Below are positions 23,153 through 46,118 of a DNA stretch of 64,000 nucleotides, piece by piece; position 1 is the first letter of the stretch; each line of letters opens with the position of its first letter. Below the pieces are notes generated by a model. That model had not been told where the DNA came from. It did no database searches and saw only the letters and a list, made by a program, of their open reading frames with translations. The stretch covers positions 6,487 through 70,486 of the forward strand of contig CAUPON010000021.1 of assembly GCA_963513025.1 (NCBI GenBank), given 5' to 3'. The translations under genes and the position numbers were made by a program. The DNA comes from an uncultured Albidiferax sp. Lineage in GTDB: Bacteria > Pseudomonadota > Gammaproteobacteria > Burkholderiales > Burkholderiaceae_C.

Positions 23153-23952
23153 CAATATGCCCCCGCCCGATAGCCTAAAGAGGTGTGTGAAGGTGCTCTT
23201 GCTGCATCTGCCAAGCTATGCGCTATCGGAATGGCATTGGCCATTAGCCGCAGTGCGAGCGGATGGGCATCGTTCCAATGCTTGTGCTGCTGCGGAAAGG
23301 TGCGAACTGTCATGAATTCTGTATGGCAGCCCAGATGTAGTTGGGCGCAGCGCTGTAGCGCGCGGCCGGTGGTCTTAGCCAAATTCTCCGCATTTTTGAC
23401 CGGATTGCTCACTACGGACGCGATCAAAGGCACCAATTGGGCCTCCAGCAGTAATTTTTTGAAGCTTTTATAGGCGCCAATGATAGAAGCTCTATGGGGT
23501 GTAACCGCCAGCAATGGCCGAACTTGGCTGCCCGGCAGCAAGGCGGCCAGCATGTGGGCGTCCGCGTACACCACGACGAGGTCGCAGTTGCGAAACAAGT
23601 GGCCCAAGGGTTGCAGCGGCATGCGGTGTCCCCGACTGTGTTGGCTTGCTATGCGGCCAAGCCCTAAACGGGCTGGCACGATATGCCATGGAGATGTGTC
23701 TGCTGGCACAGCTTCCAGCCAGTGTGCGTGATCCAGTAGGTTCTGTAAACCCGGATTGTCATCGGTTTCCGTTGAGCTTGCGTCCAGTACGGTGATACGG
23801 TAGTTGAAGCTTTGTAACACTGCACAGATTTGCCATAGCAGGGGCAGCTCTGTGTCGGAGTCCCCGCGGGTCACCATGGAAATCACACTCCAGGCGGCCT
23901 GCGGCGCCATTCGGCGCAAGCTCTCGCCTTGGTCGACGCAGGACTCAAGCAT
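23152..23952 (-). CDS. flhG: FlhG/FleN-like protein lacking a recognisable P-loop
   Basis: Position between flhF and fliA; N-terminal DQGESLRR; ITVLDAS; no KGGVGK. Confidence 0.6.
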   Translation of the reverse strand: MLESCVDQGESLRRMAPQAAWSVISMVTRGDSDTELPLLWQICAVLQSFNYRITVLDASSTETDDNPGLQNLLDHAHWLEAVPADTSPWHIVPARLGLGRIASQHSRGHRMPLQPLGHLFRNCDLVVVYADAHMLAALLPGSQVRPLLAVTPHRASIIGAYKSFKKLLLEAQLVPLIASVVSNPVKNAENLAKTTGRALQRCAQLHLGCHTEFMTVRTFPQQHKHWNDAHPLALRLMANAIPIAHSLADAARAPSHTSLGYRAGAY

Positions 23953-27462: not shown

Positions 27463-28616
27463 GGTGTGACCTCGGCCAGAATGGTTTTACTCAGGGGGTC
27501 CAGCTCAGGCGGAACATCGGGTTGCGGGAAGCTATCGGGCATGGTGCCCTCGCCCCGCATGGCCGCTTTGACCCGGTACACATAGGCCAGTACCTGGGCT
27601 ACCGCGGTGTACAGGGCCGACGGAATCTCGCCATTGATTTCGGCATGGGCATACAGTGCGCGGGCCAGCATGGGAGACTGGAATACAGGCACGGCGTTGG
27701 CGTTGGCCACGTCTCGTATTTTCATGGCCACCAGATCGGCGCCTTTGGCAATGACTTGCGGTGCGCGCATGGTTTTTTCGTCATAGCGCAGGGCGACCGC
27801 AAAGTGCGTTGGGTTCATGAGTACGAAGTCCGCCTTGGGTACCGCGCCGACACTGCTGCGCTGGGCCACTTCACGTGCTCGGGCGCGCATCTTGCCCTTC
27901 ATCTGTGGATTGCCATCGGACTCTTTGTGCTCCTGTTTCACCTCCTGGTGCGACATTTTCAGCCGCGACTTCATCAGAAAGGTCTGCAAAGGCACGTCGA
28001 TGGCTGCTAATGCAAATACGACCAGCAGCAAAAGGCTCATGCCCGAGGTAATCCAGTTGGCCAACTGCTGTATCGAAGCGGCTGAAGGCTGCAGCACCAT
28101 GAGTGCAACTGTGTTCAGGCTATTGGATAAAAATGTCCACGCAACTGCTATAAGTACTGCGGTGATTGCTATCAATTTGATAACTTCGGTCACTTGCTCT
28201 TTGGAGAACAGGCGGCCGAATCCGGAGATCGGGTTCAGGCGGCTCAAGTCTGGCATGATGGGTTTCAGGCTGGTCACCCATCCGCCGGCGGCTACGGCAC
28301 TTCCCACCGCGGCAACCATCACGATGCCAGCGAAAACAGCGCTGGCAATCATGCCGATCAGGACCATGTCTTGCAGACGGTCCAGCATACTGCCGTTGTT
28401 TGCCAGCGTGCTAGCGGTGAAGGAGAGTTGTTGGCCCATGGCCAACTTGAAGCGCTCCATGAAGGTCGGAGCCAAAACCAGCAATGCTGCCGAGCCCGCA
28501 CCCAGAACTGCCAGATGCGACAAGTCTTTGGATCGTGACGCTTGCCCGTCCTTGCGCGCTTGCTGCAGCTTGCGCTCGGTCGCGGGTAGGCTTTTGTCTT
28601 GGCTGGATGAGTCCAT
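27459..28616 (-). CDS. flhB: Export specificity switch protein
   Basis: QEHKESDGNPQMK, autocleavage motif LMNPTHFAVAL. Confidence 0.97.
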   Translation of the reverse strand: MDSSSQDKSLPATERKLQQARKDGQASRSKDLSHLAVLGAGSAALLVLAPTFMERFKLAMGQQLSFTASTLANNGSMLDRLQDMVLIGMIASAVFAGIVMVAAVGSAVAAGGWVTSLKPIMPDLSRLNPISGFGRLFSKEQVTEVIKLIAITAVLIAVAWTFLSNSLNTVALMVLQPSAASIQQLANWITSGMSLLLLVVFALAAIDVPLQTFLMKSRLKMSHQEVKQEHKESDGNPQMKGKMRARAREVAQRSSVGAVPKADFVLMNPTHFAVALRYDEKTMRAPQVIAKGADLVAMKIRDVANANAVPVFQSPMLARALYAHAEINGEIPSALYTAVAQVLAYVYRVKAAMRGEGTMPDSFPQPDVPPELDPLSKTILAEVTP

Positions 28617-28640
28617 GGCAGTGGAGTTTTAGGAAACCCC

Positions 28641-28682
28641 ATTGTCTGCAGCCGGCCATTTTTCTAAAGCCCGATAAACGGG
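28641..28682 (-). promoter_or_regulatory. Class-2-like promoter of flhB
   Basis: Minus strand CCCGTTTATC-N26-GACAAT. Confidence 0.6.
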
Positions 28683-28706
28683 ATTTAGAAGGGTTTGTTA
28701 GCAGAG

Positions 28707-29327
28707 TTAGAAGCCCAAGCTTGCTAGCAAGTCATCTACTTGTGACTGGTCGGTTACAACATCAGTGCGCGTGCTGGGATCTACGACCGGACCTGTTAAG
28801 CCTTCGGGGACTTTAGGTGCTACAGGCGCTGCACTTGGGGCGGTTTGAATCAGCAACTCAATTAATTGCTTTTCGATTGTTGCTGTGAGGTTGATAACTC
28901 GCGCGATGACTTGACCCGTCAAATCATGAAAGTCTTGCGCCATCATGATTTCTGTCAGATGGGAGTCAATCTCTTTGCTGGCACGCTCCACATCTGCTAC
29001 GAAGTTGTACACGGCACCTGTTGCTACGGCTGCAACAGGGTCTTTGACGATCAGAGCGGCCAATCGAGTGGTTTCTGCTGCAATAAAGTCATGCTGGATT
29101 TTGGCTAAATCGACACGACTCAGTACCTTTTCTGCCGCTTCGCCCGTCAGGCGGGCGATGTAGGTGAGCCGGCTTTGCGCGTCGGGCAGCTCATCGACGC
29201 TGTCTTTGAGTTTGTCGGTATAGCCTAGTTCGTTCAAGGAGTCGTGCAGCTGCCGCGTCAGCATGCCCAGTTTCTGGTGTACTACTGGTTGGAGGTCTCC
29301 GTCTGCGGGAATAGCTGCGGCGCTCAT
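28707..29327 (-). CDS. cheZ: CheY-P phosphatase
   Basis: [26 protein letters not shown]. Confidence 0.95.
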
Positions 29328-29722
29328 GCTGGAATCAACCCATTCTTTTTGAGAATGTGCACCAGCTTTTCTTCGAGAGTTGCTTTGGTGAATGGCTTGA
29401 CGATATAGCCTGCAGCCCCGCCCTGGGCTGCTGCCACGATGTCTTCTTTGCGGGCCTCGGCGGTGACCATCAGTACAGGGAGATGCTTGAGCTTCTCATC
29501 TGCCTTGATCTCCGCAAGGAGTTGAAAGCCGTTCATGTTCGGCATATTGATGTCGCTGACAACAAAGTCGAAATGTACGCCGCTGCGAAGCTTTTGCATG
29601 GCTGCAACACCATCTTCTGCTTCGTCGGCATCAGGAAAGCCGCTTTCCTTTAGCAGGTTGCGGACAATACGACGCATGGTTGAAAAGTCGTCAACAATGA
29701 GAAAACGCAGGTCAGTTGCCAC
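29324..29722 (-). CDS. cheY: Chemotaxis response regulator
   Basis: [31 protein letters not shown]; GTG start. Confidence 0.95.
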
Positions 29723-29782
29723 GTGTGACCCTTTCGATGGAAGTTACTGAAATAAGACGCATTTTTTTGGGGCTTGGCGTTT

Positions 29783-30745
29783 TCATGGTTTCTGCACGTC
29801 TCTTGACGAGGTTGTTGCGGATTTCATGTCGGTAACGGTAGGTGTTTCAATTGTTACAGGATCCGCTATTGTGTCATTGCCCATGAGTCGTTCCTCCGCC
29901 TCTTTTGTCATGATCGTAATACTGATGCGCCTATTTACTGGCGCTAACGGATTTTTGGTGTCCATGAGGTTGCTGGCGGCCAAGCCGACCACGCGGGCCA
30001 TTTTCTCATCTGGCATGCCAGCTGCAACCAGTTCGCGGCGCGAGGCATTGGCCCGGTCTGCAGACAACTCCCAGTTACTGTAGCCGCGTTCACCATTTCC
30101 ATAGGGCGTGCGGTCAGTGTGCCCTGCGAGGCTAATTCGGTTCTCAACCTCATTTAGCGCACTGCCAATCTCTCGCAAAATTTCACGCATATACGGTTTT
30201 ACTAATGCGCTGCCGCTGTCAAACATGGGGCGATTCTGCTCGTCTACGATCTGGATTTGTAAACCATCCGGTGTGGTTTCCATGCGAATTTGCGAGCGGT
30301 ATTCGCTTAATTTGGGATTGCTCGTAATGAGGGAGTCTATTTTCGCGCGCAAAGTGGACATCCGCTTGGCATCTTGCTTGGCTATTTCTGCCTTGGCCGC
30401 CTTTTCATCCATCTTCTTCTTGGCTGGGTCGTCCCCTGTTCCGCGCGTACCCTGACCCGCTGATTTGGTCAGATCTGAGCCGCCGCCAGACAAAATGCTA
30501 TTGCTCGCCCCTGCGCCGCTACCGCCTTGCATGGCAACTTTCAAGGGTGTATTGAAGAAGTCGGACAAGCCTTTTTTGTCGCCTTCGGAAGTAGAGCCCA
30601 GCAGCCACATCAGCAAAAAGAACGCCATCATTGCTGTCACAAAGTCGGCGTACGCAATCTTCCAGGCGCCGCCATGCACGGCGTGGCCGCCTTTCTTGAT
30701 CTTCTTGACGATGATCGGCTGGAGCTTTTTACCGTCGGCTGCCAT
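29783..30745 (-). CDS. motB: Stator protein B
   Basis: WKIAYADFVTAMMAFFLLMWL, GHTD, NWELSADRANA. Confidence 0.96.
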   Translation of the reverse strand: MAADGKKLQPIIVKKIKKGGHAVHGGAWKIAYADFVTAMMAFFLLMWLLGSTSEGDKKGLSDFFNTPLKVAMQGGSGAGASNSILSGGGSDLTKSAGQGTRGTGDDPAKKKMDEKAAKAEIAKQDAKRMSTLRAKIDSLITSNPKLSEYRSQIRMETTPDGLQIQIVDEQNRPMFDSGSALVKPYMREILREIGSALNEVENRISLAGHTDRTPYGNGERGYSNWELSADRANASRRELVAAGMPDEKMARVVGLAASNLMDTKNPLAPVNRRISITIMTKEAEERLMGNDTIADPVTIETPTVTDMKSATTSSRDVQKP

Positions 30746-30765
30746 GGTGTACTTAGTCTAAAGAC

Positions 30766-31626
30766 CTACTTCTTGCCCTTGACATGGCCTTCCAGCTCGG
30801 AAAAGCTGGGGCGGTCAGTCGAGAATAAAACCTTGCGACCGAATTCGATCGCTGTGGCGGGGTTGTAGCCCTGCATACTGGCCAGCAAGGTGGATTTCAT
30901 GCATTGCAGCTCTTTGGCGCCGTCTTCGGTTTTTTGCTCCAACAGCCCGCCAAGAGGTTCTACCACGCCATATGCGAGCAAGATCCCCAGGAAAGTACCC
31001 ACCAACGCAGACGCGATCATGCCGCCCAGCACCGCTGGCGGTTGTCCCACCGAACCCATGGTGTTTACCACCCCCAGCACCGCCGCCACAATTCCGAAAG
31101 CGGGCAAAGCGCCAGCCAGCCGTGCAATGGCGGCGATCGGGGCGTGGGCTTCTGCGTGGTGGGTGTCAATCTCGCTGTCCATCAGCGACTCGATTTCATG
31201 GGCGTTCAGGTTGCCTGACACCATCATTCGCAGGTAGTCGGTCATGAACTCCACCACGTGGTGGTCGCTGCCGACCGTGGGGTATTTTTTGAAAAGCTCC
31301 GACTCGTGCGGGGATTCCACGTCACCTTCGATGGCCATCAGCCCTTCTTTGCGGGCTTTTTGCAGGATGTCATACAGCAGCGATAGCAGTTCCAGGTAGC
31401 GGGTCTTGGTGTACTTCGAGCCTTTGAGCGCCTGCGGCAGCAGTGCCATGGTGGCTTTGAGTACTTTGGGTTGGTTGTTTACCGCAAAAGCCCCGAGTGC
31501 GCCGCCGAAAATGGTGATCAGCTCGAACGGCAAGGCCTTCAAAATCACAGCAATGTTGCCACCGTGGAAGATGTAAACACCGAAGATGCAACCCATGGAG
31601 ACGGCATAGCCGATAAGGACGATCAT
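30766..31626 (-). CDS. motA: Stator protein A
   Basis: DYLRMMV, PAFGIVAAVLG, ALVGTFLGILLAYG. Confidence 0.96.
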   Translation of the reverse strand: MIVLIGYAVSMGCIFGVYIFHGGNIAVILKALPFELITIFGGALGAFAVNNQPKVLKATMALLPQALKGSKYTKTRYLELLSLLYDILQKARKEGLMAIEGDVESPHESELFKKYPTVGSDHHVVEFMTDYLRMMVSGNLNAHEIESLMDSEIDTHHAEAHAPIAAIARLAGALPAFGIVAAVLGVVNTMGSVGQPPAVLGGMIASALVGTFLGILLAYGVVEPLGGLLEQKTEDGAKELQCMKSTLLASMQGYNPATAIEFGRKVLFSTDRPSFSELEGHVKGKK

Positions 31627-31700
31627 GTCTGGGGGCGCGCAGGAGTTGGGGCGGTGTAGGGGTGCATCGTTATCAAAAGCGGCTTTTAACCTATCTAAAT

Positions 31701-31727
31701 GTATCGGATATGTTGGACCTTACTTTA
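31701..31727 (-). promoter_or_regulatory. Sigma28 promoter of motAB-cheYZ
   Basis: Minus strand TAAA-N15-TCCGATAC. Confidence 0.7.
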
Positions 31728-31840
31728 AAAATAAGGACCACAAAAGGTCATTTAATCGGGCCTTGCTGCAGGGGGTGAAGGTTTATCCTCCCACGAGACG
31801 GATGTCCTGTAAACCATCTCTTACGCAAGGCTGATTGACT

Positions 31841-34800
31841 ATGACTGATTTGACGGACGCTGCCAGTCTTGTCTTGCCCGATGTTGATGCGATGCAGGAT
31901 ACCTTGCAGCAGGCGTTGGAGGCCCATAAAAAATGGGAGTTCGTGTCCGCGGAAGCCTTGTACCGCGCGGTGCTGGAGCTTGATCCTCTGCATGCGGATG
32001 CGCACCACAATCTGGGGGTTTTGCTGGCCGTGCAATTGCTGCGACCACAAGAGGCATTGCCGCACTTCGAGGCCGCACTCAATGCGGATGCAGGGCGCCC
32101 GCAGTTCTGGTTCAGTTACATCGACGCCCTGATCCGCTGCCAGCATTTCGATCTGGCGCGCGAGGTGCTTCCGCTGGCCCAGGCCCAGGGTTTGCAGCTG
32201 GCTGCCGTGAATGCCCTGAGTGAACGGTTGCCTCATCTGTCTCTGAATACCGCCCCGCCGGCGCCTTCCGAACCCTCTGCCGAAGAGATGCAAGCCTTGG
32301 TTCAGCTATTCAATCAGGGTGACTATGCACAGGGCGAAGCGCGCGCCCGTGCACTGGTCCAGCGCTGCCCAGAAAATGGTTTCGCCTGGAAGGCGCTGGG
32401 CACCATGCTACAGCCGCAGGGCAAGAAGGAAGAGGCGTTGGCAGCCAAGTTAAAAGCCGTACAGCTTTTGCCAGAGGATGCAGAAGGCCTGTGCAATTTG
32501 GGCCGCTCGTATTTCGAGCTGGGCCAGACCCAGCAGGCCATCGAAGTGTTGCAGGCCTGTGTGTCCGTCAAGCCGGATTACGCTGAGGCTTTCAATAACT
32601 TGGGCTTGGCCTTGAACGCAGACGGCCAGGTGGATGCTGCGCACCGCTGTTTTGAGCGTGCGATCGCCATACAACCCGGTTTCGCGGAAGCGTTGAACAA
32701 TCTGAGTGGCATTTTTAATGTCCATGGCCTGGTGGACGAGGCTGTCGCAGTGCTGCAAAAAGCGGTGGCGGCCAAGGCCGACTACCGCATCGCCTTCGAC
32801 AACCTGCTGTTTGTATTGAATTACCACCCCGACAAGAGCGCGGAAGACATATTTCAAACCTATGGCGAGTACGAGAAGCGCTTTGGACTGCCGCACCGCG
32901 CCAGTTGGGCCCGGCACCAAAACTCGCGCAATGCCCAGCGGCGCTTGAAGGTCGGTTATGTGTCGCCCGACTTCAAAGGCCATGCCTGCACCTTCTTCAT
33001 GGAGCCGCTGCTGTCCAAGCATGACCGCAACCTGATAGATGTCTATGCCTACGCCGAGTTGACCCAAGAAGACGCTGCAACCCAGCGCTACAAGCAATAT
33101 GTAGAGCATTGGGTGCCCACCCGCGGCATGAGCGACGACGCACTGGCCCAGCGCATCCGGGCCGACGGCATCGACATCTTGGTCGACCTGGCGGGCCACA
33201 CCGCCGGCAACCGCCTGGGCGTGTTTGCGCGCAAGCCAGCTCCGGTGTCGCTAAGCTGGATGGGCTTTGGCTACACCACTGGCCTGAAAGCCATCGACTA
33301 CTACCTGACCGACGATGCCAGCGCTCCGGTTGGCTGCGAGCATGTGTTCTCTGAACAACCATGGCGCCTGCCTGATAGCAGCTACGCCGTGTACCGCCCA
33401 GGGGCCGGCATGGGAGAAGTCAGTACGCTGCCCGCGCAGGAACGCGGCTATGTCACCTTGGGCACCTTAACCCGCGGCGTTCGTATCAACCACCACACCA
33501 TCCGCGTCTGGGCCCAAATACTGCAACGCCTGCCCACGGCCCATATTGTCATCGACAGCAGTTCTTTTAAGGACACAACGGTGCGCGACGCCGCGATAGG
33601 CAAATTCGGCGTTTATGGAGTAGCAGCCGAGCGCCTGCACATCGGCTTTAATAGCCCCCCCTGGGATGTGCTGCGCGGAATCGATATCGGCCTGGACTGC
33701 TTCCCGCATAATTCGGGCACCACCTTGTTCGAGACCCTGTACATGGGGCTGCCCTTCATCACCCTGGCCGGTCGGCCCAGCGTAGGCCGCATCGGCAGCG
33801 CCATTCTGCAAGGTCTCGGCCGGCCGGAGTGGATTGCCCAGACGGAAGAAGAATATGTAAACAAGGTGGTCGCCCTGGCATCAGACCTGCCAGCCCTGGC
33901 CCAACTGCGCACCACACTGCGTGCCCAGATGCAGGCCAGCCAGCTGATGGACGAAGTGGGTTTTACGCGCAAGGTCGAGCAAGCCTATGGCCAGATGTTC
34001 GCGCGCTGGGCACAGCAGAACCCTGTATCGCAGGTGGACACCACACCGGCGCTGGTGACGCGCCGCCATGCGCCTAGCGCGGACGAGATGCGCTTGCTGG
34101 CCTCGTTCTTCGAGTCGCGTGACTTTGTCGCCGGCGCTGCGGCCGCGCGCGAAGTGGTGCGTTTGTATCCCCGCGAAGGCTTTGGCTGGAAGGCGCTGGG
34201 CGCCATGCTGCACCCTCTGGGTCTGGTGGATGAGGCGCTGGCGGCCAAAAAGAAGGCCGTGGAGCTGATGCCGCAGGACGCCGAGGCGGCCTGTAACCTG
34301 GGCCAGTCGCTGCAAGACCAGGGGCACTACATGCTGGCCGAGGCCGCCTTGCAGCGGGCTCTGGTGCTGAATCCCGATTACGCGGAGGCCTATAACAACC
34401 TCGCCATCACGTACCAAAAAATGGGCCGTATTGCCGAGTCGGAAACCAACTTCCGGGCCGCTCTGGCGCTGAAACCCCAGCATAAATGGGTGTACGACAA
34501 CTTTTTGTTCACGCTGAACTACCACCCGGAGCACAGCGCCGAAACCATTTTTGAAGCCTACCGCGAATACGAGCGGCGCTTTGGCGATCCGTACCGGGGT
34601 GACTGGGTCGCGCATGGCAATGACCGCAGCCTGGGCCGGCGCTTACGGGTCGGCTATGTGTCGCCCGACTTCCGCAGCCATTCCTGCACTTTCTTCATGG
34701 AGCCCTTGCTGGCCTGGCACGACCCGGCCGTGGTCGAGGTCACTGCCTACGCCGAGCTGAACAAGGAGGATGCCGTCACCCAGCGTTACCAGCGCCATGT

Positions 34801-37800
34801 GGCGCACTGGGTGCCCACGCGCGGCATGAGCGATGCCGATCTGGCCCAGCGTATCCGGGCCGACGGCATCGACATCCTGGTCGACCTGGCTGGCCATACC
34901 GTCGGCAACCGTTTGGGCGTGTTTGCGCGCAAACCGGCCCCGGTGTCGCTGAGCTGGATGGGCTATGGCTACACCACCGGCCTGCGCGCCATCGATTACT
35001 ACCTGACCGACGAGGCCAGCGCCCCTGTAGGCAGCGAAGCGCTGTTCTCCGAGGAACCCTGGCGCCTGCCGGACAGCTGCTACGCTGTGTACCGCCCGGG
35101 CGACGGCATGGGCGAGGTGAACTCCTTGCCGGCGCTGCAGCGCGGGTACGTCACGTTGGGCACCCTGACCCGCGGTGTGCGCATCAACCACCACACGGTC
35201 AGCGTCTGGGCGCGGGTGCTGCAGCGCCTGCCGACTGCCCATCTGGTGGTTGACAGCCGGTCTTTCCAGGACGCGGCGGTACAGGAAGATGTGATGCAGA
35301 AATTTGTGGCCCTGGGCATAGAGCGCGAGCGCCTGCACATTGGCTTCAACAGCCCCCCCTGGGATGTGCTGCGCGGCATCGACATAGGCCTGGACTGCTT
35401 CCCGCACAACTCCGGCACCACCTTGTTCGAGACTCTGTACATGGGCCTGCCGTATGTGACCCTGGCCGGCCGGCCCAGCGTGGGCCGCATCGGCAGCGCC
35501 ATCCTGCACGGTCTCGGCCGTCCGGAGTGGATTGCCACCACCGAAGACGAATACGTGGATAAAGTGGTCGCCCTGGCATCCGATCTACCGGCCTTGGCCC
35601 GGCTGCGTGCTGGTTTGCGTGCGGAGATGCAGGCCAGCCAGTTGATGGATGAAGAGCGCTTCACCCGCAAGATGGAGCAGGCCTATGGCCAGATGTTCGA
35701 ACGCTGGGTCACCCGCACCGCAGCGGGGGCGGTAGAGGTAGTGCCCAGTGCAGACGCTATGAACGGTCTGGTGCGCCTGTACCAAGAGCAGGCTTTTGCA
35801 GAAGGCGAGCAAGCCGCGCAAGCCCTTGTCGCCCGCTATCCTCGCCACGGCTACAGCTGGAAGCTGCTGGGCTCGTTTGCGCAAAAATGCGGCCATGTCG
35901 ACGCGGCTTTGCAGGCCAAGCAACGCGCTGTGCAGCTCCTGCCTGACGATACCGAGGCGTTGTTCAACCTGGCCATGGCCTATGAGCAGCAGGGCCTGAT
36001 GCGGCAAGCCGAGCCCTGCTACCGCGCGCTGATTGCCTTGCAGCCGGGCGATGCCGAGGCGCACCACAACCTCGGCAACACCCTGGTGGGCCAGGGGCGG
36101 CGCAACGAGGCCATTCCTTGTTACCGCGAAGCCTTGCGGCTCAAGCCCGACTTTGAAGCATCGCACCAAAGCCTTGGGGGCTTGTTGCAGGAGTCGGGTG
36201 GCCTAGTCGAGGCGGAATCGGTCTGGCGCAGCCTGCTGCAGCTCAAGCCCGACGATATGCAGGCAGCCTTGCAACTGGGCCGGGTCTTGCAGCAGCAAGG
36301 ACGGCGGGCCGAGGCCGAGGTCAGCTTCCGCAAGGCGGTCGATGTGTCGGACGACAGCCATGTGGGTTACTTCCACCGCGGCAACTTCCTGGGTGAACTG
36401 GGCTTGCTGGCCGAAGCCGAGGCGGATTTGCGCCGGGCTGTGGAGATCGAACCCCAGGCCGCCGAGGCCTGGAGCAATCTTTGCGGCATCCTCAAGGAGC
36501 AGTGCCGGCTGGTGGAGGCCGAGGCCTGCGCCGTCAAAGCCTTGGAGATCAAGCCCGAGTTTGTCGCCGGCTGGGCCAACCATGCGGTGGTCCTGCTGAT
36601 GCAGGGGCGCCTGGCCGAGGCCGAGGTGAGTTTTCGGCGTGCCATGGCCTTGGAGCCGCAGCTGGTGGGCATTTTCTCCAGCCTTCTGTTTGCGCTGAAC
36701 TACGACGCCGATAAAACGGCGGAGGAGATCTACGCCAACTACGCTGAGTTCGACCGGCTTTTTGGCGCTCCGCACCGGTCGGCTTGGCTCCCGCACAGCA
36801 ATCCGCCCGCAGCTGGGCGCCGGCTGAAGGTCGGGTACATGTCGCCCGATTTCAAAGGCCATGCGTGCACCTTCTTTATGGAGCCCCTGCTGTCCCAGCA
36901 CGACCGCAGCGTGGTGGATGTCTATGCCTACGCCGATCTAGTGAAGGAAGACGCTGCAACCCAGCGCTACAAGCAATATGTAGAGCATTGGGTGCCCACC
37001 CGTGGCATGAGCGACGACGCATTGGCCCAGCGTATCCGCGCCGACGGCATCGACATTTTGGTTGACCTGGCGGGCCACACCGCCGGCAACCGTCTGGGCG
37101 TGTTTGCGCGCAAGCCGGCGCCGGTATCTCTGAGCTGGATGGGCTTTGGCTACACCACCGGCCTGAAAGCCATCGACTACTACCTGACCGACGATGCCAG
37201 CGCTCCGGCGGGTTGCGAGCATCTCTTCTCAGAGCAACCCTGGCGCCTGCCCGACAGCAGCTATGCCTCCTACCGGCCCAGCACGAGCATGGGCGAAGTC
37301 AGTACGCTGCCCGCGCTGGAGCGCGGCTATGTCACCCTGGGCACCCTGACCCGCGGCGTGCGCATCAACCGCCACACCATCCGTGTGTGGGCCCAGATAC
37401 TGCAACGCTTGCCTACGGCCCACCTCGTGATGGACAGCAGCTCATTCAAAGACCAGGTAGTGCAGGAATCGGTGGCCCGGAAGTTTGTCGCCTACGGCAT
37501 AGACCGCGCGCGGCTGCACATCGACTACAGCAGCCCGCCGTGGAACGTGCTGCGCGGCATCGACATCGGGTTGGACTGCTTCCCGCACAATTCGGGCACC
37601 ACCTTGTTCGAAACCCTGTACATGGGGCTGCCGTTTGTCACCCTGGCCGGTCGGCCCAGCGTAGGCCGCATTGGCAGCGCCATCCTGCACGGAGTGGGGC
37701 ATCCGGAATGGATTGCCCAGACCGAAGAAGAGTATGTGGACAAGGTCGTCGCCCTGGCCTCGGACCTGCCTGCCTTGGCCCAGCTGCGCACCACACTACG

Positions 37801-37906
37801 TGCCCAGATGCAGGCCAGCCAGCTGATGGACGAGGTGGGCTTTACGCGCAAGGTTGAGCAGGCCTATGGCCAGATGTTCGCACGCTGGAAGGAGCAGCAA
37901 AAATGA
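31841..37906 (+). CDS. Giant TPR / GT41 (OGT/SPINDLY-like) glycosyltransferase with three catalytic modules
   Basis: TPR blocks ([16 protein letters not shown]) alternate with three copies of [60 protein letters not shown]; ATG 31841 (the ORF track starts at TTG 31835). Confidence 0.9.
32795..34009 (+). repeat. GT41 module 1 (1215 bp)
   Basis: [13 protein letters not shown]...YGQMFARW. Confidence 0.85.
34493..35707 (+). repeat. GT41 module 2 (1215 bp)
   Basis: [13 protein letters not shown]...YGQMFERW; offset 1698 bp from module 1. Confidence 0.85.
36674..37888 (+). repeat. GT41 module 3 (1215 bp)
   Basis: [13 protein letters not shown]...YGQMFARW; offset 3879 bp from module 1; 56-bp exact match 33068-33123 vs 36947-37002. 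Confidence 0.85.
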
Positions 37907-38673
37907 AAGCAGTGATATTGGCCGGGGGCTTGGGCACCCGGATTTCCGAAGAGACGCATCTGCGCCCCAAGCCCATGATCGAGATCGGCGGCAAGCCCAT
38001 ACTTTGGCACATCCTGAAGATGTATTCGGCCCACGGCGTGAACGACTTTGTGATCTGCTGCGGCTACAAGGGCTACATCATCAAGGAATACTTCGCCAAC
38101 TACTTTCTGCACATGTCCGACGTGACCTTCGACATGGCGCAGAACCGCATGGAAGTGCACCACAAGCACGCCGAACCCTGGAAGGTCACCCTGGTGGACA
38201 CGGGAGACGACTCCATGACCGGCGGCCGCCTCAAGCGCGTAGCCGACTACGTGAAAAACGAGCCTGCCTTCTGCTTCACCTATGGCGATGGCGTGTCTGA
38301 CGTGGACATCAGCGCCAGCATTGCCTTCCACCAGCAGCACGGCAAGCTGGCCACGGTGACGGCCGTACAGCCCCCGGGCCGCTATGGCGCGCTGCGCATG
38401 GAGGGCGACGTGGTGCAGGGTTTTACTGAGAAGCCGCGTGGCGACGGCGGCCTGATCAACGGTGGCTTCTTCGTGCTTTCACCCCAGGTGCTGGACCGCA
38501 TCGTCGGCGACAGCACCAGCTGGGAAGCCGAGCCGCTGGCCGGTCTGGCCGAGGAAGGCCAGCTGCGCGCCTACGAGCACACCGGCTTCTGGCAGCCAAT
38601 GGACACGCTGCGCGAGAAAAACCTGCTGGAAGAACTCTGGTCCTCCGGCAAAGCCCCCTGGAAAAAATGGTAA
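37903..38673 (+). CDS. rfbF: Glucose-1-phosphate cytidylyltransferase
   Basis: [46 protein letters not shown]; ATGA overlap with the GT gene. Confidence 0.95.
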
Positions 38674-39728
38674 CCAGCGTCTGGACAAATACCCCGGTTT
38701 TCTTGACCGGCCACACCGGCTTCAAAGGCGGCTGGTTGACCCTGGCCTTGCACGCCATGGGGGCCAAGGTCCACGGCTATGCGCTGGACCCGCACACCCA
38801 GCCCAGTCTGTTCGAGGTGGCGCGCGTGGCCGATGCCCTGGCCAGCGACACCCGGGCCGATTTGGCTGACCGAGCGGCGCTGCAGGCGGCCTTGGCCGCG
38901 GCCCAGCCCACGGTGGTGTTCCACCTGGCCGCCCAGCCCCTGGTGCGCGCCAGCTATGCCGACCCTTTGGGTACTTTTGCCACCAATGTGATGGGCACGG
39001 CCCATCTGCTGGAGGCCGTGCGCCAGGTGCCCAGCGTGCGCGCCGTGGTGGTGGTGACCACCGACAAGGTCTACGACAACCGCGAATGGGTCTACCCCTA
39101 CCGCGAAGCCGATGCCCTGGGCGGCCACGACCCCTACAGCGCCAGCAAGGGCGCCGCCGAGATCGTCGCCGCCAGCTACCGCGCCAGCTTCTTCCATGGC
39201 GCCGATGCGGCGCAGATCGCCACGGCGCGCGCCGGCAATGTGATCGGTGGCGGCGACTGGGCGGCAGACCGCCTGGTGCCCGACTGCCTGCAGGCCTTTG
39301 CCGCCGGCCAGCCGGTGCAGCTGCGCTACCCCGGCGCCGTGCGCCCCTGGCAGCACGTGCTAGAGCCCTTGTCCGGGTATGTTCGCTTGGCCGAACACCT
39401 GTTGGCCCGTGCGCCAGAGGCCGCCAGCGCCTGGAACTTTGGCCCCGACGCCCGCGGCGACGCCAGCGTGGGCCAATTGGCCCAGCGCCTGGCCAGCCTG
39501 TGGGGGCAGGGCGCCCGCGTGGACATGCCTGACGGCGGCGACCATCCCCACGAGGCCGGCCTGCTGCGCCTGGACATCACCCGCGCCCGCGCCCAGCTGG
39601 ACTGGCAGCCGCGCTGGAGCCTGGACCAGGCGCTGGAGCACACAGTGGCCTGGCACCGCGCCTGGCGTGCGGGTGAAGACATGGCCCAGCTCTGCCGCAG
39701 CCAGATGGAGGCCTATGGCCCGTTGTAA
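38667..39728 (+). CDS. rfbG: CDP-glucose 4,6-dehydratase
   Basis: [50 protein letters not shown]. Confidence 0.95.
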
Positions 39729-39732
39729 TTTT

Positions 39733-39790
39733 TTTGCTATTTTATTGATAGCTTCTCGCGCAGGTGATACCTGCGCTAGAGGCCAATTTT
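39733..39790 (+). repeat. REP-like repeat, copy 4 (inside the sugar operon)
   Basis: GCTAT-tttattg-ATAGC-ttctc-GCGCAGGT-gat-ACCTGCGC-TAGAGGC; perfect 8-bp stem 39758-39776. Confidence 0.8.
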
Positions 39791-39812
39791 GTTCAAAGAA
39801 AGTGGCGCAGCC

Positions 39813-40373
39813 ATGAGCCGCTTTGAATTGCAAGCCACCCCGCTGTCCGGTCTGTGGGTGGTGCAGCGCCAGCGCCTGGGCGATGCCCGGGGCTTTCTGT
39901 CGCGCTTGTTCTGCGCCGACGAGCTGGCTGCGGCCGGCTGGGTCGGTGCCATTGCCCAAATCAACCACACCCAGACGGCCGAGCCCGGCACCGTGCGCGG
40001 CCTGCACTTCCAGCACCCGCCGCATGCCGAGATGAAGCTGGTCAGCTGCATACGCGGCGCGGTGTGGGACGTGGCGGTGGACCTGCGGCCCGACTCGCCT
40101 ACCTATCTGCGCTGGCATGCCGAGACGCTGTCGGCCGACAACCAGCGTGCGCTGCTGATCCCCCCCGGCTTTGCCCACGGCTTCCAGGCGCTGGAGGCCG
40201 ATGTGGAAATGCTGTACTGCCATTCCCAGGCCTACGCCCCGCAGAGCGAGGCCGGCTTGCACCCGCAGGACCCGCGCCTGGCCATTGCTTGGCCGCTGCC
40301 GGTGCGCGGCCTGTCTGCCCGTGACGCCAGCCACCCGCCGATGGGCGATGATTTTGAAGGAGTTCGTTTGTGA
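39813..40373 (+). CDS. rfbC: NDP-4-keto-6-deoxyhexose 3,5-(or 5-)epimerase (RmlC/RfbC cupin family)
   Basis: DARGFL, VRGLHFQ, KLVSCIRGAVWDVAVDLR, GFAHGFQAL; start re-called to ATG 39813. Confidence 0.88.
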   Translation: MSRFELQATPLSGLWVVQRQRLGDARGFLSRLFCADELAAAGWVGAIAQINHTQTAEPGTVRGLHFQHPPHAEMKLVSCIRGAVWDVAVDLRPDSPTYLRWHAETLSADNQRALLIPPGFAHGFQALEADVEMLYCHSQAYAPQSEAGLHPQDPRLAIAWPLPVRGLSARDASHPPMGDDFEGVRL

Positions 40374-41599
40374 AATGCCGCCACTGTGGGGCCCTGCTGA
40401 GCCTGCCTTTTCTGGACCTGGGCAGCGCGCCGCCCAGCAATGCCTACCTGACCGACACCACACTGAACGCGCCCGAGGTCTGGTACCCGCTGCGCGTGCT
40501 GGTCTGCCAGCACTGCTGGTTGGTGCAAACCGAGGACCACGCCGGGCGCGAGGCCTTGTTTACCGCCGACTACGCCTACTTCAGCAGCATCTCCAGCTCC
40601 TGGCTGGCCCATGCCCAGGCCTATGTGGTCGAGATGCAGCAGCGCTTCGCACTCGGCGCGCAGAGCCGGGTGGTCGAGGTCGCCTCCAACGACGGCTATC
40701 TGCTGCAGTACGTGCAGGCCGCTGGCGTGCCTTGCTACGGAATCGAGCCCACGGCCAGCACGGCGGCCGCCGCCAAGGCCAAGGGTATTGCGGTGGTGGA
40801 GCGCTTCTTTGGCGTGGCGCTGGCGCAGGAGCTGGTGGCCCAGGGCCAGCAGGCCGACCTGACCGCCGCCAACAATGTGTTGGCCCATGTGCCCGACATC
40901 AACGACTTCGTTGCCGGCTTTGCCGCGCTGCTCAAGCCCCAGGGCGTGGCGACCTTCGAGTTCCCGCATGTGCAGCAGATGGTGCAGCAGTGCCAGTTCG
41001 ACACCGCTTACCACGAGCACTATTCCTACCTGTCGCTCACGGCGGTACAGCGCATCTTTGCCGCCAATGGTCTGCAGGTGTTCGACGTGCAAGAGCTGCC
41101 CACCCATGGCGGCAGCCTGCGCGTATTCGCCCAGCGGGCCGATACCGGCACCCAGCCTGTGGCACCCGCTGTGCAGCAGGTGCTGCTGGGCGAAGAAGCG
41201 GCCGGCATGCGCACGCCTGATTTCTACAGCCAATTTGGCGCCCAGAGCAGGCGCATCGCGCGTGAGCTGCTCTCATTTTTGGTAAACGCCGCACATGCGG
41301 GCACCTCTATCGCCGCCTATGGTGCCGCCGCCAAAGGCAACACTCTGCTGAACTTTGCCGGCGTGCGCCCGCACCTGCTGCCCTATGTGGTGGACCGTGC
41401 CCCGGCCAAGCAGGGCAAATACATGCCCGGCAGCCGTATCCCCATCGTGGACGAAGCCCAGCTGCGCGCGCAGCAGCCGCGCTATGTGCTTATCCTGCCG
41501 TGGAATCTGCAGGCCGAGGTGATGGAGCAGCTGGCTTACATCCGCGACTGGGGTGGTCGCTTTGTCACCGCCGTGCCCGGGCTGGTCGTGTGGCCGTGA
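40370..41599 (+). CDS. SAM-dependent NDP-hexose C-methyltransferase (TylCIII/EryBIII/NovU/TcaB9 family)
   Basis: Zn site CRHC...CQHC, YAYFSS, EVASNDGYLL, NVLAHV, YHEHYSY, PTHGGSLR, YGAAAKGNTLLN. Confidence 0.9.
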   Translation: MKCRHCGALLSLPFLDLGSAPPSNAYLTDTTLNAPEVWYPLRVLVCQHCWLVQTEDHAGREALFTADYAYFSSISSSWLAHAQAYVVEMQQRFALGAQSRVVEVASNDGYLLQYVQAAGVPCYGIEPTASTAAAAKAKGIAVVERFFGVALAQELVAQGQQADLTAANNVLAHVPDINDFVAGFAALLKPQGVATFEFPHVQQMVQQCQFDTAYHEHYSYLSLTAVQRIFAANGLQVFDVQELPTHGGSLRVFAQRADTGTQPVAPAVQQVLLGEEAAGMRTPDFYSQFGAQSRRIARELLSFLVNAAHAGTSIAAYGAAAKGNTLLNFAGVRPHLLPYVVDRAPAKQGKYMPGSRIPIVDEAQLRAQQPRYVLILPWNLQAEVMEQLAYIRDWGGRFVTAVPGLVVWP

Positions 41600-42480
41600 A
41601 GGTACTGCTCACCGGCGCCAGCGGCTACCTGGGCCGCTACGTGCTGGCCAGCCTGCGCGCGCAGGGCTGTGAGGTGGTGGTACTGGGTCGCAGCCTGCCT
41701 GCCGGCTTTGAGGATGTACCCCTGGTGCCCTGCGACCTGCTCGACGGCGCGGATCTGGCGGCAGCAGTGCAGCAGGCCGGCGCCACCCATCTCATGCACC
41801 TGGCCTGGACCACCGAATACGGCGTGTACTGGGCGTCGCCGTTGAACTTCCGCTGGGTCGATGCAACCTTGCGCCTGTTACAGGCCTTTTGCGACGCCGG
41901 TGGCCGGCATGTGGCCATCGCCGGCACCTGCGCCGAATACGACTGGGCCTCCGGTTATCTGCGCGAAGACGCCACGCCCTATGCGCCGGCCACGCTGTAC
42001 GGAGTGGCCAAGGACGCGACCCGCCGCATGGCCGCGGCGCTGTGTGCGGCCCGCGGCGTGTCGCTTGCCTGGGGCCATATCTTCTTCCCATTCGGTCCGG
42101 GCGAGGCCACCCAGCGCATGCTGCCCTCGCTGCTGCGGGTGTTCCGCGGCCAGGCGGAGCCTTTCGGGGTGAATCTGGCGGCTTACCGCGGCATGCTGTA
42201 TGTGCCGGATGCGGCGAATGCGCTGGCGACCGTGCTGCTGCAGGGCTGCAAGGGCAACTTCAATATCTGCTCGGGCCAGCCGGCGCTGATCGGCGACGTA
42301 GTGCAGACCCTGGCCCGTTTGTGCAATGCCGACCCCGTTCCGGTGCTGGCCCTTGCGACTGCCCGCCCCGGCGATCCACCGATGCTGGTGGGCGAAAACA
42401 CCCGCTTGCTGGCCACCGGCTGGCGACCTACTTTTACGCTGGAGCAGGGCCTGGCCGCCCTGGTCCGTTCAACAGCTTGA
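41596..42480 (+). CDS. NAD(P)-dependent NDP-4-ketosugar reductase/epimerase (extended SDR)
   Basis: VLLTGASGYLG, GTCAEY, LYGVAK; GTG start 41596 overlaps the previous stop. Confidence 0.88.
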   Translation: MKVLLTGASGYLGRYVLASLRAQGCEVVVLGRSLPAGFEDVPLVPCDLLDGADLAAAVQQAGATHLMHLAWTTEYGVYWASPLNFRWVDATLRLLQAFCDAGGRHVAIAGTCAEYDWASGYLREDATPYAPATLYGVAKDATRRMAAALCAARGVSLAWGHIFFPFGPGEATQRMLPSLLRVFRGQAEPFGVNLAAYRGMLYVPDAANALATVLLQGCKGNFNICSGQPALIGDVVQTLARLCNADPVPVLALATARPGDPPMLVGENTRLLATGWRPTFTLEQGLAALVRSTA

Positions 42481-42498
42481 TGCCAACAGGAGATCTCT

Positions 42499-43281
42499 AT
42501 GACCACCCCAGAACAACAATTTGCGGCCGAGCGCCAAGAGCGGCTCAGCGCCTACGCACAAGACAACGCGTTCAAAGACCTGTCGCGCCAATGGCTGCAA
42601 ATGTCGATGGACAAAAAGTATGTATACAACTTTGACTGGCTCGGCCGGCCCATCATCCAGTACCCGCAGGACATGGTCGCTATCCAGGAGCTGGTTTGGA
42701 CGGTGCGCCCTGATCTGATCATTGAAACCGGCATTGCCCACGGTGGCTCGTTGATCCTCAGTGCGTCCATGCTGGCCATGCTGGACATGTGCGATGCCAT
42801 TGAAAGCGGCACCAGCATTGATCCACGGGTGTCGGCGCGCAAGGTGATTGGCATCGACATCGACATCCGCGAGCACAACCGTGCCGCCATCCAAGCCCAC
42901 CCCATGGCCAGCCGCATCCAGATGGTGCAGGGCTCGTCGATTGCGGCGGATGTGGTGGCCCAGGTGCGGGAAGCGGCGCAGGGCTACAAAAAAGTGATGG
43001 TGTTCCTGGATTCCATGCACACCCACGACCACGTGCTGGGCGAGTTGGATGCATATGCGCCGCTGGTTAGCCCGGGCAGCTACTGCGTGGTGTTCGACAC
43101 CTTTGTGGAAGACATGCCGCCCAAATTCTTTGCCGACCGCCCCTGGGATATCGGCAACAACCCCAAGACCGCCACCCGCCAGTGGTTGAAGGGCCACCCG
43201 GAGTTTGTGGTGGACCCTGCGGCCGAATCGCGGCTGATGGTGACGGTGGCGCCCGAAGGCTTCCTGAAGCGCTTGGCCTAG
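42499..43281 (+). CDS. CmcI / cephalosporin-hydroxylase family protein (probable sugar O-methyltransferase)
   Basis: WLGRPIIQYPQDM, PDLIIETGIAHGGS, VFLDSMHTHDHV, YCVVFDT. Confidence 0.85.
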   Translation: MTTPEQQFAAERQERLSAYAQDNAFKDLSRQWLQMSMDKKYVYNFDWLGRPIIQYPQDMVAIQELVWTVRPDLIIETGIAHGGSLILSASMLAMLDMCDAIESGTSIDPRVSARKVIGIDIDIREHNRAAIQAHPMASRIQMVQGSSIAADVVAQVREAAQGYKKVMVFLDSMHTHDHVLGELDAYAPLVSPGSYCVVFDTFVEDMPPKFFADRPWDIGNNPKTATRQWLKGHPEFVVDPAAESRLMVTVAPEGFLKRLA

Positions 43282-43386: not shown

Positions 43387-43414
43387 AAAAAAAGACCCCT
43401 AGGGGTCTTTTTTT
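43387..43414. terminator. Bidirectional intrinsic terminator
   Basis: Perfect 28-bp palindrome AAAAAAAGACCCCT/AGGGGTCTTTTTTT between the convergent CmcI-family gene and flagellin 1. Confidence 0.8.
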
Positions 43415-43431: not shown

Positions 43432-44655
43432 TTATTGTTGCAGCAGGGTCAGCACGCTCTGTGGCAGCTTGTTGGCTTGGGCCACCATGGCGGTACCTGC
43501 CTGTTGCAGGATCTGGGTGCGCGACAGATTGGCGGTTTCCATTGCGAAGTCGGCGTCCACGATCCGGCCCTTGGCGGCAGCCAGGTTTTCGATCTGGATG
43601 CTGATGTTGCTGACCGCGCTTTCAAAGCGGCTTTGTAAGGCGCCGAGGCCGGCACGCGCCGAGTTCACCTGGTCGATGGCTTCGTCGATCTTCTTCAGCG
43701 CGACCCAGGAGTTACGCTGTGTATCCACCGTCAAGGTGTCGATGCCCAAGGCGTCGGTGGTTGTGTCGGTGGAGTTGATGTTGGAAGCCAATGCGCCGCC
43801 GGCCAAGCCGGTGGTGGCGGTGGTGAAGCCGGCCAGGGTCACGACCTTGGCGTCGCCAGCCGAGTCGAGCTCGGCGGACATCAGGTCGATGCGGTAGGTC
43901 TGGTCGTCGTTTTGCGACAGGAAGGCTGTCACACCAGTGTCCGCAGACTTACGGTTGATCGCCTCGATAACCTGTCCCATGCGTTCTTCGCCTGAATTGG
44001 CAGCGGAAATCGCGCCCAGATCAAAAGCCGCGGTGTCGCCGGTGACCGAAATCGTCAAGGTGTTGCTGGCGAGGGAGGTAAGTGTGCTGACGGCGGATGC
44101 GTCCACATTGCTAGCGGTCTGGTCGAATGCGTAGGCCACATCGGACAAACCCTTGGCGGTCGAGTTGGTCAAGGCGCCCAGCGATGCCACGTCGCCAGAG
44201 TTGGCGCCCACCTGGAACACCGCGCCAGCAAACGAGCCGTCGAGGATTTTTTTGCCGTTGAACGAGGTTTGCTTGGCAATCCGGTCGACTTCGTCTGTCA
44301 GCTGTGTAACTTCAGCCTGCAGCGCGGCACGGTCGGCTTTGCTATTGGTCGCATTGCTGGCCTGGACTGCCAGTTCACGCATACGTTGCAGCATGTCGCC
44401 CACCTTGCCCAACGCGCCTTCAGCGGTTTGCGCCAGCGAAATGCCGTCGTTGGCGTTACGCGCCCCGACGGTCAGGCCGCGCACCTGGGTGGTCATGCGT
44501 TCCGAAATGGCCAAACCGGCTGCATCGTCCTTGGCGCTATTGACCCGCAAGCCGGAAGACAGGCGTTGCATGGAGGTTGCCAGCGAGTTGGCCGAGGTAG
44601 CCAGGTTGCGCTGCGCATTGAGCGAATTGATGTTCGTGTTGATCGTTGCAGCCAT
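43432..44655 (-). CDS. fliC: Flagellin 1
   Basis: QRLSSGLRVNSAKDDAAGLAIS, LQRMRELAVQASN, RIVDADFAMETANLSRTQILQQAG. Confidence 0.97.
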   Translation of the reverse strand: MAATINTNINSLNAQRNLATSANSLATSMQRLSSGLRVNSAKDDAAGLAISERMTTQVRGLTVGARNANDGISLAQTAEGALGKVGDMLQRMRELAVQASNATNSKADRAALQAEVTQLTDEVDRIAKQTSFNGKKILDGSFAGAVFQVGANSGDVASLGALTNSTAKGLSDVAYAFDQTASNVDASAVSTLTSLASNTLTISVTGDTAAFDLGAISAANSGEERMGQVIEAINRKSADTGVTAFLSQNDDQTYRIDLMSAELDSAGDAKVVTLAGFTTATTGLAGGALASNINSTDTTTDALGIDTLTVDTQRNSWVALKKIDEAIDQVNSARAGLGALQSRFESAVSNISIQIENLAAAKGRIVDADFAMETANLSRTQILQQAGTAMVAQANKLPQSVLTLLQQ

Positions 44656-44897: not shown

Positions 44898-46118
44898 ATG
44901 TCCACCTCTATCAATACGAACATCAATTCGCTCAATGCGCAGCGCAATTTGATGTCGTCGGCCAACTCGTTGGCGACGTCTATGCAGCGTTTGTCCTCGG
45001 GTTTGCGGGTGAACAGCGCCAAGGATGATGCCGCCGGCTTGGCGATTTCCGAGCGCTTCCTGACCCAGGCCAAAGGTTTGACGGTCGGTGCCCGTAACTC
45101 CAACGACGGCATTTCGCTGGCGCAAACCGCTGAAGGCGCGTTGGGTAAGGTCGGCGACATGCTGCAGCGTATGCGTGAACTGGCAGTCCAGGCCAGCAAT
45201 GCAACCAACAGCAAGGCCGACCGCGCTGCACTTCAGTCCGAAGTTTCCCAGCTGACCGACGAAGTCGACCGGATTGCCAAGCAAACCACCTTCAACGGCA
45301 AAAAAGTGTTGGACGGTTCGTTCGCCGGTGCAGTGTTCCAGGTGGGCGCCAACGCTGGTGACAATATTTCTGTGGGTGCACTGACCAATTCCAGTGCCAA
45401 GGGTTTGTCCGATGTGTCATACGCCTTCGACCAAGCTGCCAGCAATGTGGATGCTTCTGCCGTCAGCACGCTGACTTCCATCGCCACCAACGTCTTGACG
45501 GTGTCGGTGACAGGCGATGCTGCTGCCTTTGATCTGGGGGCGATTGCCGCCGCCAGCTCTGGCGAAGAGCGTATGGGCCAGATCGTTGAAGCAATCAACC
45601 GTAAGTCTGCCGATACCGGTGTGACGGCCTTCTTGTCGCAAAACGACGACCAGACCTACCGTGTCGACCTGATGTCCAGTGAACTGGACTCGGCTGGCGA
45701 CGCCAAGGTTGTGACTCTGGCTGGTTTCACCACCGCCACCACCGGCTTGGCCGGCGGCGCATTGGCCTCTAATATCAATGCCACCAATACCACCACCGAT
45801 GCCCTGGGTATCGATACCTTGACGGTGGACACACAGCGCAACTCCTGGGTCGCGCTGAAGAAGATCGACGCCGCCATCGACCAGGTGAACTCGGCACGTG
45901 CGGATCTGGGTGCTTTGCAAAGCCGCTTTGAAAGCGCCGTGGGCAATATTGCGATCAGCGTGGAAAACATCTCTGCTGCACGTGGTCGGATTGTGGATGC
46001 TGACTTCGCGTCGGAAACCGCCAATCTGTCGCGTACCCAGATCCTGCAGCAGGCAGGTACCGCCATGGTGGCCCAGGCCAACAAGCTGCCACAGAGCGTG
46101 CTGTCTCTGCTGCAATAA
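44898..46118 (+). CDS. fliC: Flagellin 2
   Basis: Same conserved termini as flagellin 1; central region highly similar. Confidence 0.97.
   Translation: MSTSINTNINSLNAQRNLMSSANSLATSMQRLSSGLRVNSAKDDAAGLAISERFLTQAKGLTVGARNSNDGISLAQTAEGALGKVGDMLQRMRELAVQASNATNSKADRAALQSEVSQLTDEVDRIAKQTTFNGKKVLDGSFAGAVFQVGANAGDNISVGALTNSSAKGLSDVSYAFDQAASNVDASAVSTLTSIATNVLTVSVTGDAAAFDLGAIAAASSGEERMGQIVEAINRKSADTGVTAFLSQNDDQTYRVDLMSSELDSAGDAKVVTLAGFTTATTGLAGGALASNINATNTTTDALGIDTLTVDTQRNSWVALKKIDAAIDQVNSARADLGALQSRFESAVGNIAISVENISAARGRIVDADFASETANLSRTQILQQAGTAMVAQANKLPQSVLSLLQ

Follow-up and report, generated by a model that had tools for sequence, protein, structure and literature searches.

CDP-vinelose is, to our knowledge, known only from Azotobacter vinelandii, and since the 1960s it has stood as an orphan nucleotide sugar for which we know of neither genes nor a destination. 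Okuda, Suzuki and Suzuki (J Biol Chem 1967-68) reportedly identified it as cytidine diphosphate (CDP)-6-deoxy-3-C-methyl-2-O-methyl-L-talose; vinelose is said, in the work of 1968, to be made from CDP-glucose, and a second nucleotide sugar of A. vinelandii is said to be the 4-O-(O-methylglycolyl) ester of CDP-vinelose. The formula calculated for CDP-vinelose is C17H29N3O15P2, with a monoisotopic mass of 577.107. A cassette of six genes that may supply such a sugar lies at positions 37903-43281 of a 64,000-nucleotide stretch of DNA (the window; positions 6,487 to 70,486 of contig CAUPON010000021.1) from an uncultured Albidiferax sp. With a probability of roughly 0.7, the cassette makes CDP-6-deoxy-3-C-methyl-2-O-methyl-L-hexose, that is, CDP-vinelose or its 4-epimer, for transfer to flagellin by a glycosyltransferase of family GT41. 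In the predicted system of the window as in the CDP-vinelose system, a 6-deoxy sugar is activated by CDP and bears a single C-methyl and a single O-methyl group, and the genes stand in an orthologous order beside those for GT41 and flagellin; A. vinelandii, unlike the window, adds a hexapeptide acyltransferase, PhyH and TylF, and its 4-ketoreductase belongs to another subfamily of the short-chain dehydrogenases/reductases (SDR).

Other described systems resemble parts of the locus. Flagellin glycosylation islands with TPR/GT41 transferases are found in Pseudomonas and Burkholderia as well as in enterobacteria. One type of enterobacterial island encodes CDP-4-keto-6-deoxyglucose synthesis (De Maayer and Cowan 2016, PMC4875605). 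The enterobacterial islands (PMC4875605), like that of the window, are variable sets of sugar genes inside a flagellar cluster, beside flagellin and with GT41; the window differs from them in its predicted CDP-linked, C-methyl-branched and O-methylated sugar, and in having three GT41 modules in one chain. The flagellin glycan of Acidovorax avenae was rejected as a precedent, as that island consists of a methyltransferase, a carbamoyl-phosphate synthase and a transaminase (PMC4622738). The deoxythymidine diphosphate (dTDP)-L-noviose pathway of novobiocin (NovV, NovT, NovW, NovU, NovS and NovP) shares with the window a nucleotidylyltransferase, a 4,6-dehydratase, an RmlC-type epimerase, a C-methyltransferase, a 4-ketoreductase and an O-methyltransferase, but has a dTDP carrier, a methyl group at C5, a TylF-type O-methyltransferase that acts after transfer, and a secondary-metabolite setting. 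TylC3 (4RV9), TcaB9 (3NDI) and KijD1 (5T64), from pathways such as those of dTDP-L-mycarose and D-tetronitrose/kijanose, have the same three-domain fold family, zinc site and YHEH motif as the C-methyltransferase of the window, whereas their substrates are dTDP-2,6-dideoxy or 3-amino sugars that need a 2,3-dehydratase or an aminotransferase, steps absent in the window. GDP-virenose (6-deoxy-3-C-methyl-D-gulose, of Coxiella burnetii lipopolysaccharide) and the 3-C-methyl-rhamnose of Burkholderia andropogonis and Azorhizobium O-antigens are likewise surface 3-C-methyl-6-deoxyhexoses, but they have other nucleotide carriers or genes that are not known, belong to polysaccharide rather than protein glycans, and are in some cases of the D-series. 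A literature search found no flagellin glycan with a branched-chain sugar, nor this enzyme set acting on flagellin.

The six genes of the cassette are as follows.

37903..38673, + strand: glucose-1-phosphate cytidylyltransferase, giving CDP-glucose (TIGR02623 equivalog, 478.9 bits, cut-off 300, model positions 1-255/255)
38667..39728, + strand: CDP-glucose 4,6-dehydratase (TIGR02622 equivalog, 491.2 bits, cut-off 278)
39789..40373, + strand: RmlC-like (3,)5-epimerase, predicted to act on a CDP-4-keto sugar (PF00908, 198 bits)
40370..41599, + strand: S-adenosylmethionine (SAM)-dependent zinc sugar C-methyltransferase of the TylC3/TcaB9/KijD1 family (PF08421, PF13489, PF08484)
41596..42480, + strand (open reading frame from 41500): extended SDR, probable 4-ketoreductase (PF01370, 108 bits)
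42499..43281, + strand: CmcI-family SAM methyltransferase, probable sugar 2-O-methyltransferase (PF04989, 315.9 bits, 1-205/206)

All six genes are intact and lie on the + strand, and their coordinates and profile matches agree with the six enzymes named in an earlier annotation made from the sequence of the window (the first-pass annotation). Start and stop codons overlap at 37903/37906, 38667/38673, 40370/40373 and 41596/41599, and four of the five junctions among the six genes overlap or nearly abut. Flanking genes were counted in the 134 related loci with enough flanking sequence, and in 128-132 of these the order cytidylyltransferase, dehydratase, epimerase, C-methyltransferase is the same. 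Because of these codon overlaps and the conserved order of the head genes, the arrangement of the cassette is not due to chance. The most likely start of the SDR gene is the GTG at 41596, not 41500, with a GTGA overlap with the stop of the C-methyltransferase gene; from this start the protein has 294 amino acids and begins MKVLLTGASGYLG. No open reading frame for an aminotransferase, a 3-dehydrase or a 2,3-dehydratase was found across 31835-43281, and the earlier statement that the first two of these are missing is thereby upheld. A CDP-3,6-dideoxyhexose pathway (abequose, tyvelose, ascarylose) was rejected: the PMP/Fe-S 3-dehydrase E1 and its reductase E3 are absent, and all open reading frames of the island were assigned to other families.

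The head of the cassette is of CDP type. The cytidylyltransferase scores 52.5 bits against the rmlA_long model (cut-off 320), and the dehydratase 87.5 bits against the dTDP-glucose dehydratase model (cut-off 365). The dehydratase is the sole match over the TIGR02622 cut-off in the genome, and a TDK...YSASK signature can be read in its sequence; an Asp-Lys and YxxxK signature is given in a review for CDP-specific dehydratases (PMC8987622). The epimerase scores 148.4 bits against TIGR01221, the equivalog for dTDP-4-dehydrorhamnose 3,5-epimerase, just below the cut-off of 155.75, and its matches in the PDB include RmlC (3RYK, 5.5e-35) and NovW (7.5e-32). The true rmlC of the genome, at 277 bits, is not in the island but on contig 4. 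The best PDB match of the SDR is Rmd, a GDP-6-deoxy-D-lyxo-4-hexulose reductase and thus a 4-ketoreductase (2PK3, 2.1e-21), and the SDR has the motifs TGxxGxxG and YGVAK. The first-pass annotation left the choice between a vinelose-like and a noviose-like product; its vinelose half gains from the CDP equivalogs, which pass their cut-offs, and from an orthologous cassette in A. vinelandii DJ, and its noviose half loses from the dTDP models, which stay below theirs.

On these family assignments, glucose-1-phosphate and CTP would give CDP-glucose, and 4,6-dehydration would convert this to CDP-4-keto-6-deoxy-D-glucose. The RmlC-like enzyme would then epimerise C5 (and C3), bringing the sugar into the L-series; the TylC3-type enzyme would deprotonate beside the 4-keto group and place the methyl group of SAM at C3; the SDR would reduce the 4-keto group; and the CmcI-family enzyme would methylate O-2. 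Finally, a co-translated enzyme with three TPR-GT41 modules would transfer the sugar to serine or threonine residues of two flagellins. The product foreseen in the first-pass annotation, a CDP-activated, C-methylated, O-methylated and probably L-configured 6-deoxyhexose, fits every one of the family assignments.

A parallel to this predicted pathway comes from Azotobacter. The C-methyltransferase is present in Azorhizophilus paspali and in three of the six species genomes of its genus, and one of those copies has a 100% identical counterpart, labelled '[Azotobacter]', whose gene lies on CP001157.1, a record which we take to be the genome of A. vinelandii DJ. There, UDP-glucose dehydrogenase is followed by an island, at about 2,853,275-2,860,602, with cytidylyltransferase, dehydratase, RmlC-like protein, C-methyltransferase (at about 2,856,979-2,858,208), hexapeptide acyltransferase, SDR, CmcI, PhyH and TylF in this order; next to these, on the opposite strand, are a TPR-GT41-GT2 protein and then a 567-amino-acid flagellin, and FliA and FlhE are encoded upstream. 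The window and DJ proteins are identical at 79% of positions for the cytidylyltransferase, 53% for the dehydratase, 67% for the RmlC-like protein, 71% for the C-methyltransferase and 73% for CmcI. In an Azotobacter draft genome with an identical island, the island contains the only CDP-glucose dehydratase over cut-off and the only PF08484 C-methyltransferase. If vinelose is made from CDP-glucose, as was reportedly found in 1968, it must come from this cassette, since the island has the sole dehydratase and the sole C-methyltransferase.

The place of the O-methyl group can be approached from the acylated form of the sugar. An acyltransferase, a 2-oxoglutarate-type hydroxylase (PhyH) and a second O-methyltransferase (TylF) would fit the O-methylglycolyl ester, and PhyH and TylF are adjacent in eight of the ten loci that have PhyH, five of these eight also having the acyltransferase. 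As these three enzymes would account for the ester, CmcI is left for the 2-O-methyl group; and with CmcI assigned to O-2, the six genes of the window would be the exact set for the unacylated sugar. A family tree, whose sampling is biased in that nearly all loci were collected via the C-methyltransferase, groups the CmcI proteins of the window and of A. vinelandii in one clade (96% support) and places those of C-methyltransferase-free islands of the same genus in another (100% support). The stage at which CmcI acts may be different from that proposed here. The nucleotide sugar might end as CDP-6-deoxy-3-C-methyl-L-hexose and be methylated by CmcI only later, on the flagellin-bound sugar or another acceptor, as the mycobacterial CmcI-family enzyme and O-methyltransferases of the TylF/NovP type are said to act after glycosyl transfer; CDP-vinelose, in contrast, is said to bear its 2-O-methyl group already at the nucleotide stage. 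Against NF045824, the equivalog for rhamnosyl O-methyltransferase (cut-off 400), the CmcI protein of the window reaches no more than 78.8 bits, which leaves room for late methylation, but no other O-methyltransferase accompanies the cassette as constantly as CmcI does (107 of the 134 related loci) and the copy in the window is orthologous to that of A. vinelandii, so that late methylation is considered unlikely. A mycobacterial gene of the CmcI family, Rv2959c, belongs to the locus for a 2-O-methyl-L-rhamnosyl residue (PMC3594219).

Methylation at O-2 of the nucleotide sugar being preferred, the position of the C-methyl group has also to be considered. All three domains of the C-methyltransferase are covered end to end (PF08421, 1-62/62; the SAM domain PF13489; PF08484, 1-160/160), it is the sole PF08484 match of the window genome, and in an alignment to 4RV9 it keeps the four zinc cysteines (CxxC...CxxC), AH and YHEH. 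The enzymes can be paired one by one with NovV/T/W/U/S and the epimerase has NovW among its better solved relatives, so the C-methyltransferase might act at C5 like NovU, with the RmlC-like protein serving as a 3-epimerase and a 5-C-methyl (gem-dimethyl) 6-deoxyhexose as the product. C3- and C5-methyltransferases have the same Pfam architecture and are not separated by Pfam. However, the solved relatives matched by the enzyme (TylC3, 4RV9, 4e-65; KijD1, 5T64, 1.9e-63; TcaB9, 3NDI, 1.6e-62) are C3-methyltransferases only, the Azotobacter genome searched has no enzyme of this kind besides the ortholog known from A. vinelandii, the sugar known from Azotobacter carries its C-methyl group at C3, and the nucleotide is CDP, not dTDP. 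Action at C5 is on these grounds a distinctly poor candidate, and C3, for which orthology speaks and for which the sequence offers no discriminator of its own, is the probable site.

The flagellar setting of the cassette is given by the genes on either side.

31835..37906, + strand: glycosyltransferase with three TPR-GT41 modules, 2023 amino acids (PF13844, 432.7 bits in six stretches, and many TPR families)
43387..43414, no strand: GC-rich hairpin with runs of A and T on its flanks, located where the CmcI and fliC1 genes converge (read from the sequence)
43432..44655, - strand: flagellin 1 (fliC1), presumed sugar acceptor (PF00669, PF00700, PF07196)
44898..46118, + strand: flagellin 2 (fliC2), presumed sugar acceptor (PF00669, PF00700)

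The TPR-GT41 gene is the first of the operon and overlaps the start of the cytidylyltransferase gene in an ATGA at 37903-37906. When its three modules were cut apart and compared by BLAST, they were 62-67% identical to one another. Upstream of the island are motAB, cheZ, flhB, flhA, flhF and fliA, and directly downstream are fliC1, fliC2, fliD and fliS. The two flagellins are 89% identical and both have centres rich in serine and threonine, which make up 25% of the central region of flagellin 1. By its gene content and position, the locus belongs to a known type, the flagellin glycosylation islands. The antibiotic-type setting that the first-pass annotation had proposed was not confirmed: flagellar genes lie on both flanks, the GT41 gene is coupled to the operon, and a secondary-metabolite context was rejected because polyketide, aminocoumarin and resistance genes are absent. 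It is very improbable that the sugar is instead made for a polysaccharide (O-antigen or capsule) and that the flagellar position is incidental. In favour of such a reading, no more than 48 to 55 of the 134 related loci encode a flagellin, FliD or GT41 within 10 kb, and Burkholderia andropogonis and Azorhizobium caulinodans have 3-C-methyl-rhamnose in their O-polysaccharides (PMC7203242). Against it, the start of the first sugar gene overlaps the end of a gene for a TPR-GT41 glycosyltransferase of the protein type; motA and fliC bound the island, which lacks Wzx/Wzy, an ABC exporter and an initiating transferase; and the same position carries variant sugar islands in congeners.

The hairpin at 43387-43414 probably terminates transcription in both directions and closes the operon; it was not listed by a simple terminator scan. 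A sigma-70 scan of the region upstream of the operon found nothing. A sigma-28-like site with two mismatches at 31701-31727 (- strand) is directed at motA, and no comparable site points toward the glycosylation operon. The G+C content of the island (34000-42000) is 0.64-0.67, as against 0.53-0.55 for motAB/cheZ (28000-32000) and 0.57-0.58 for the flagellin region, and the higher value is compatible with acquisition by transfer. Between flhF and fliA, at the place of flhG, an open reading frame at 23152-23952 (- strand) matches no Pfam family, which agrees with the earlier remark that it has lost its ATPase motifs. Three GT41 modules are present, yet only one dedicated sugar is encoded in the island; the modules may share one donor and serve different sites, or may draw on other donors. 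The true rmlC of the genome lies beside weak SDR matches on the same contig, and dTDP-rhamnose may on this account be available in the cell.

Several points weigh against the proposal that the cassette supplies vinelose or its 4-epimer to flagellin. We know of no biochemistry for any member of the cassette. What is stated here of the structure of CDP-vinelose, of its acylation and of CDP-glucose as its source is attributed to the work of 1967-68, and a literature search returned nothing relevant on vinelose or on flagellin glycosylation in A. vinelandii. The nearest characterised relative of CmcI, from mycobacteria, is thought to act on a lipid-linked and not on a nucleotide sugar. A search for a sigma-28 promoter ahead of the glycosylation operon gave none. 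About 60% of the related cassettes lie outside any visible flagellar setting, and the sugar is for this reason not intrinsically flagellar. The SDR of the window has only 22% identity (E 2e-5) to that of the A. vinelandii island; the two belong to unrelated subfamilies and are not orthologous, and a tblastn search with the SDR of the window at 1e-5 gave no match. As the two reductases are unrelated, the configuration at C4 may be that of vinelose or of its 4-epimer. With the reductases so far apart, and with C3 favoured over C5 by orthology only, the caution of the first-pass annotation that stereochemistry and methyl position cannot be read from sequence still holds.

The four-gene head of the cassette is syntenic in at least about 600 species of many phyla, and the tail is modular: the type in the window consists of an SDR and CmcI, the A. 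vinelandii type combines CmcI with an acyltransferase and another kind of SDR, to which PhyH and TylF may be added, and the A. paspali type contains a second C-methyltransferase paralog. In Azorhizophilus paspali (locus L085, 12108-13286) and many other loci, this second paralog lacks the zinc domain and is located between the SDR gene and a divergent CmcI gene. The 60-nucleotide, AT-rich spacer at 39729-39788, the sole sizeable gap in the operon, separates the dehydratase gene from the epimerase gene, and identity to congeners drops there, from 84-86% for the dehydratase to only 61-79% for the epimerase; the spacer may be a recombination junction for the exchange of cassette tails.

Within the genus, the C-methyltransferase is present in 10 of 15 congeners, and among 21 genomes of the other genera of the family it was found in two. 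Acidovorax sp. GW101-3H11 (L084) also carries the cassette. The organism of the window is a Rhodoferax-like member of the Comamonadaceae, and Rhodoferax ferrireducens BE313 (L002) has the same island with 79-99% protein identity. In Rhodoferax sp. OV413 (L003) a TylF-type gene is added at 12130-12888, between the SDR and CmcI genes, and the rest of the island is 90-99% identical. Two congeners with complete genomes that lack the C-methyltransferase (L223, G010:C1:505300-519900; L224, G009:C1:734980-751600) keep the motA-to-fliD slot. Their GT41 proteins, of 2022 or 2582 amino acids (triple or larger), are 57-74% identical over the aligned part to that of the window; the cytidylyltransferase is 86-91% and the dehydratase 76-84% identical, and the RmlC-like gene is kept. 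The tail there contains an SDR of the A. vinelandii type, a different CmcI, TylF and a hexapeptide acyltransferase. The predicted sugar of these two loci is a di-O-methyl (acylated) 6-deoxyhexose, with the same mass as the predicted sugar of the window, for which a residue C8H14O4 of 174.089 Da is calculated. Because congeners keep the head genes yet swap the tailoring genes at a fixed slot, the island appears to be a combinatorial tailoring system built on a constant CDP-6-deoxy-L-hexose core.

The six genes of the window match the needs of vinelose synthesis step for step, the nine-gene version of A. vinelandii matches the acylated form, and both adjoin a flagellin glycosyltransferase. A wider proposal, put forward tentatively and with the odds somewhat against it, is that the cassette is the genetic basis of vinelose, and that vinelose-type sugars are widespread O-glycans of flagellin (and pilin), installed by GT41 enzymes from CDP donors, with a methylation and acylation pattern that varies between close strains as a surface code. 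We know of no description of CDP-sugars as a donor class for GT41. A new class of flagellar glycan is predicted, and an old chemical curiosity becomes a question that can be tested by experiment. Phages or grazers, for example, may exert selection on the surface chemistry of the flagellum, as the swapping of modules among members of one genus suggests. Since no fewer than about 600 species have the cassette, biochemical work on one example would help to annotate the genomes of many. The finding is coherent and testable, and the cassette is a common one.

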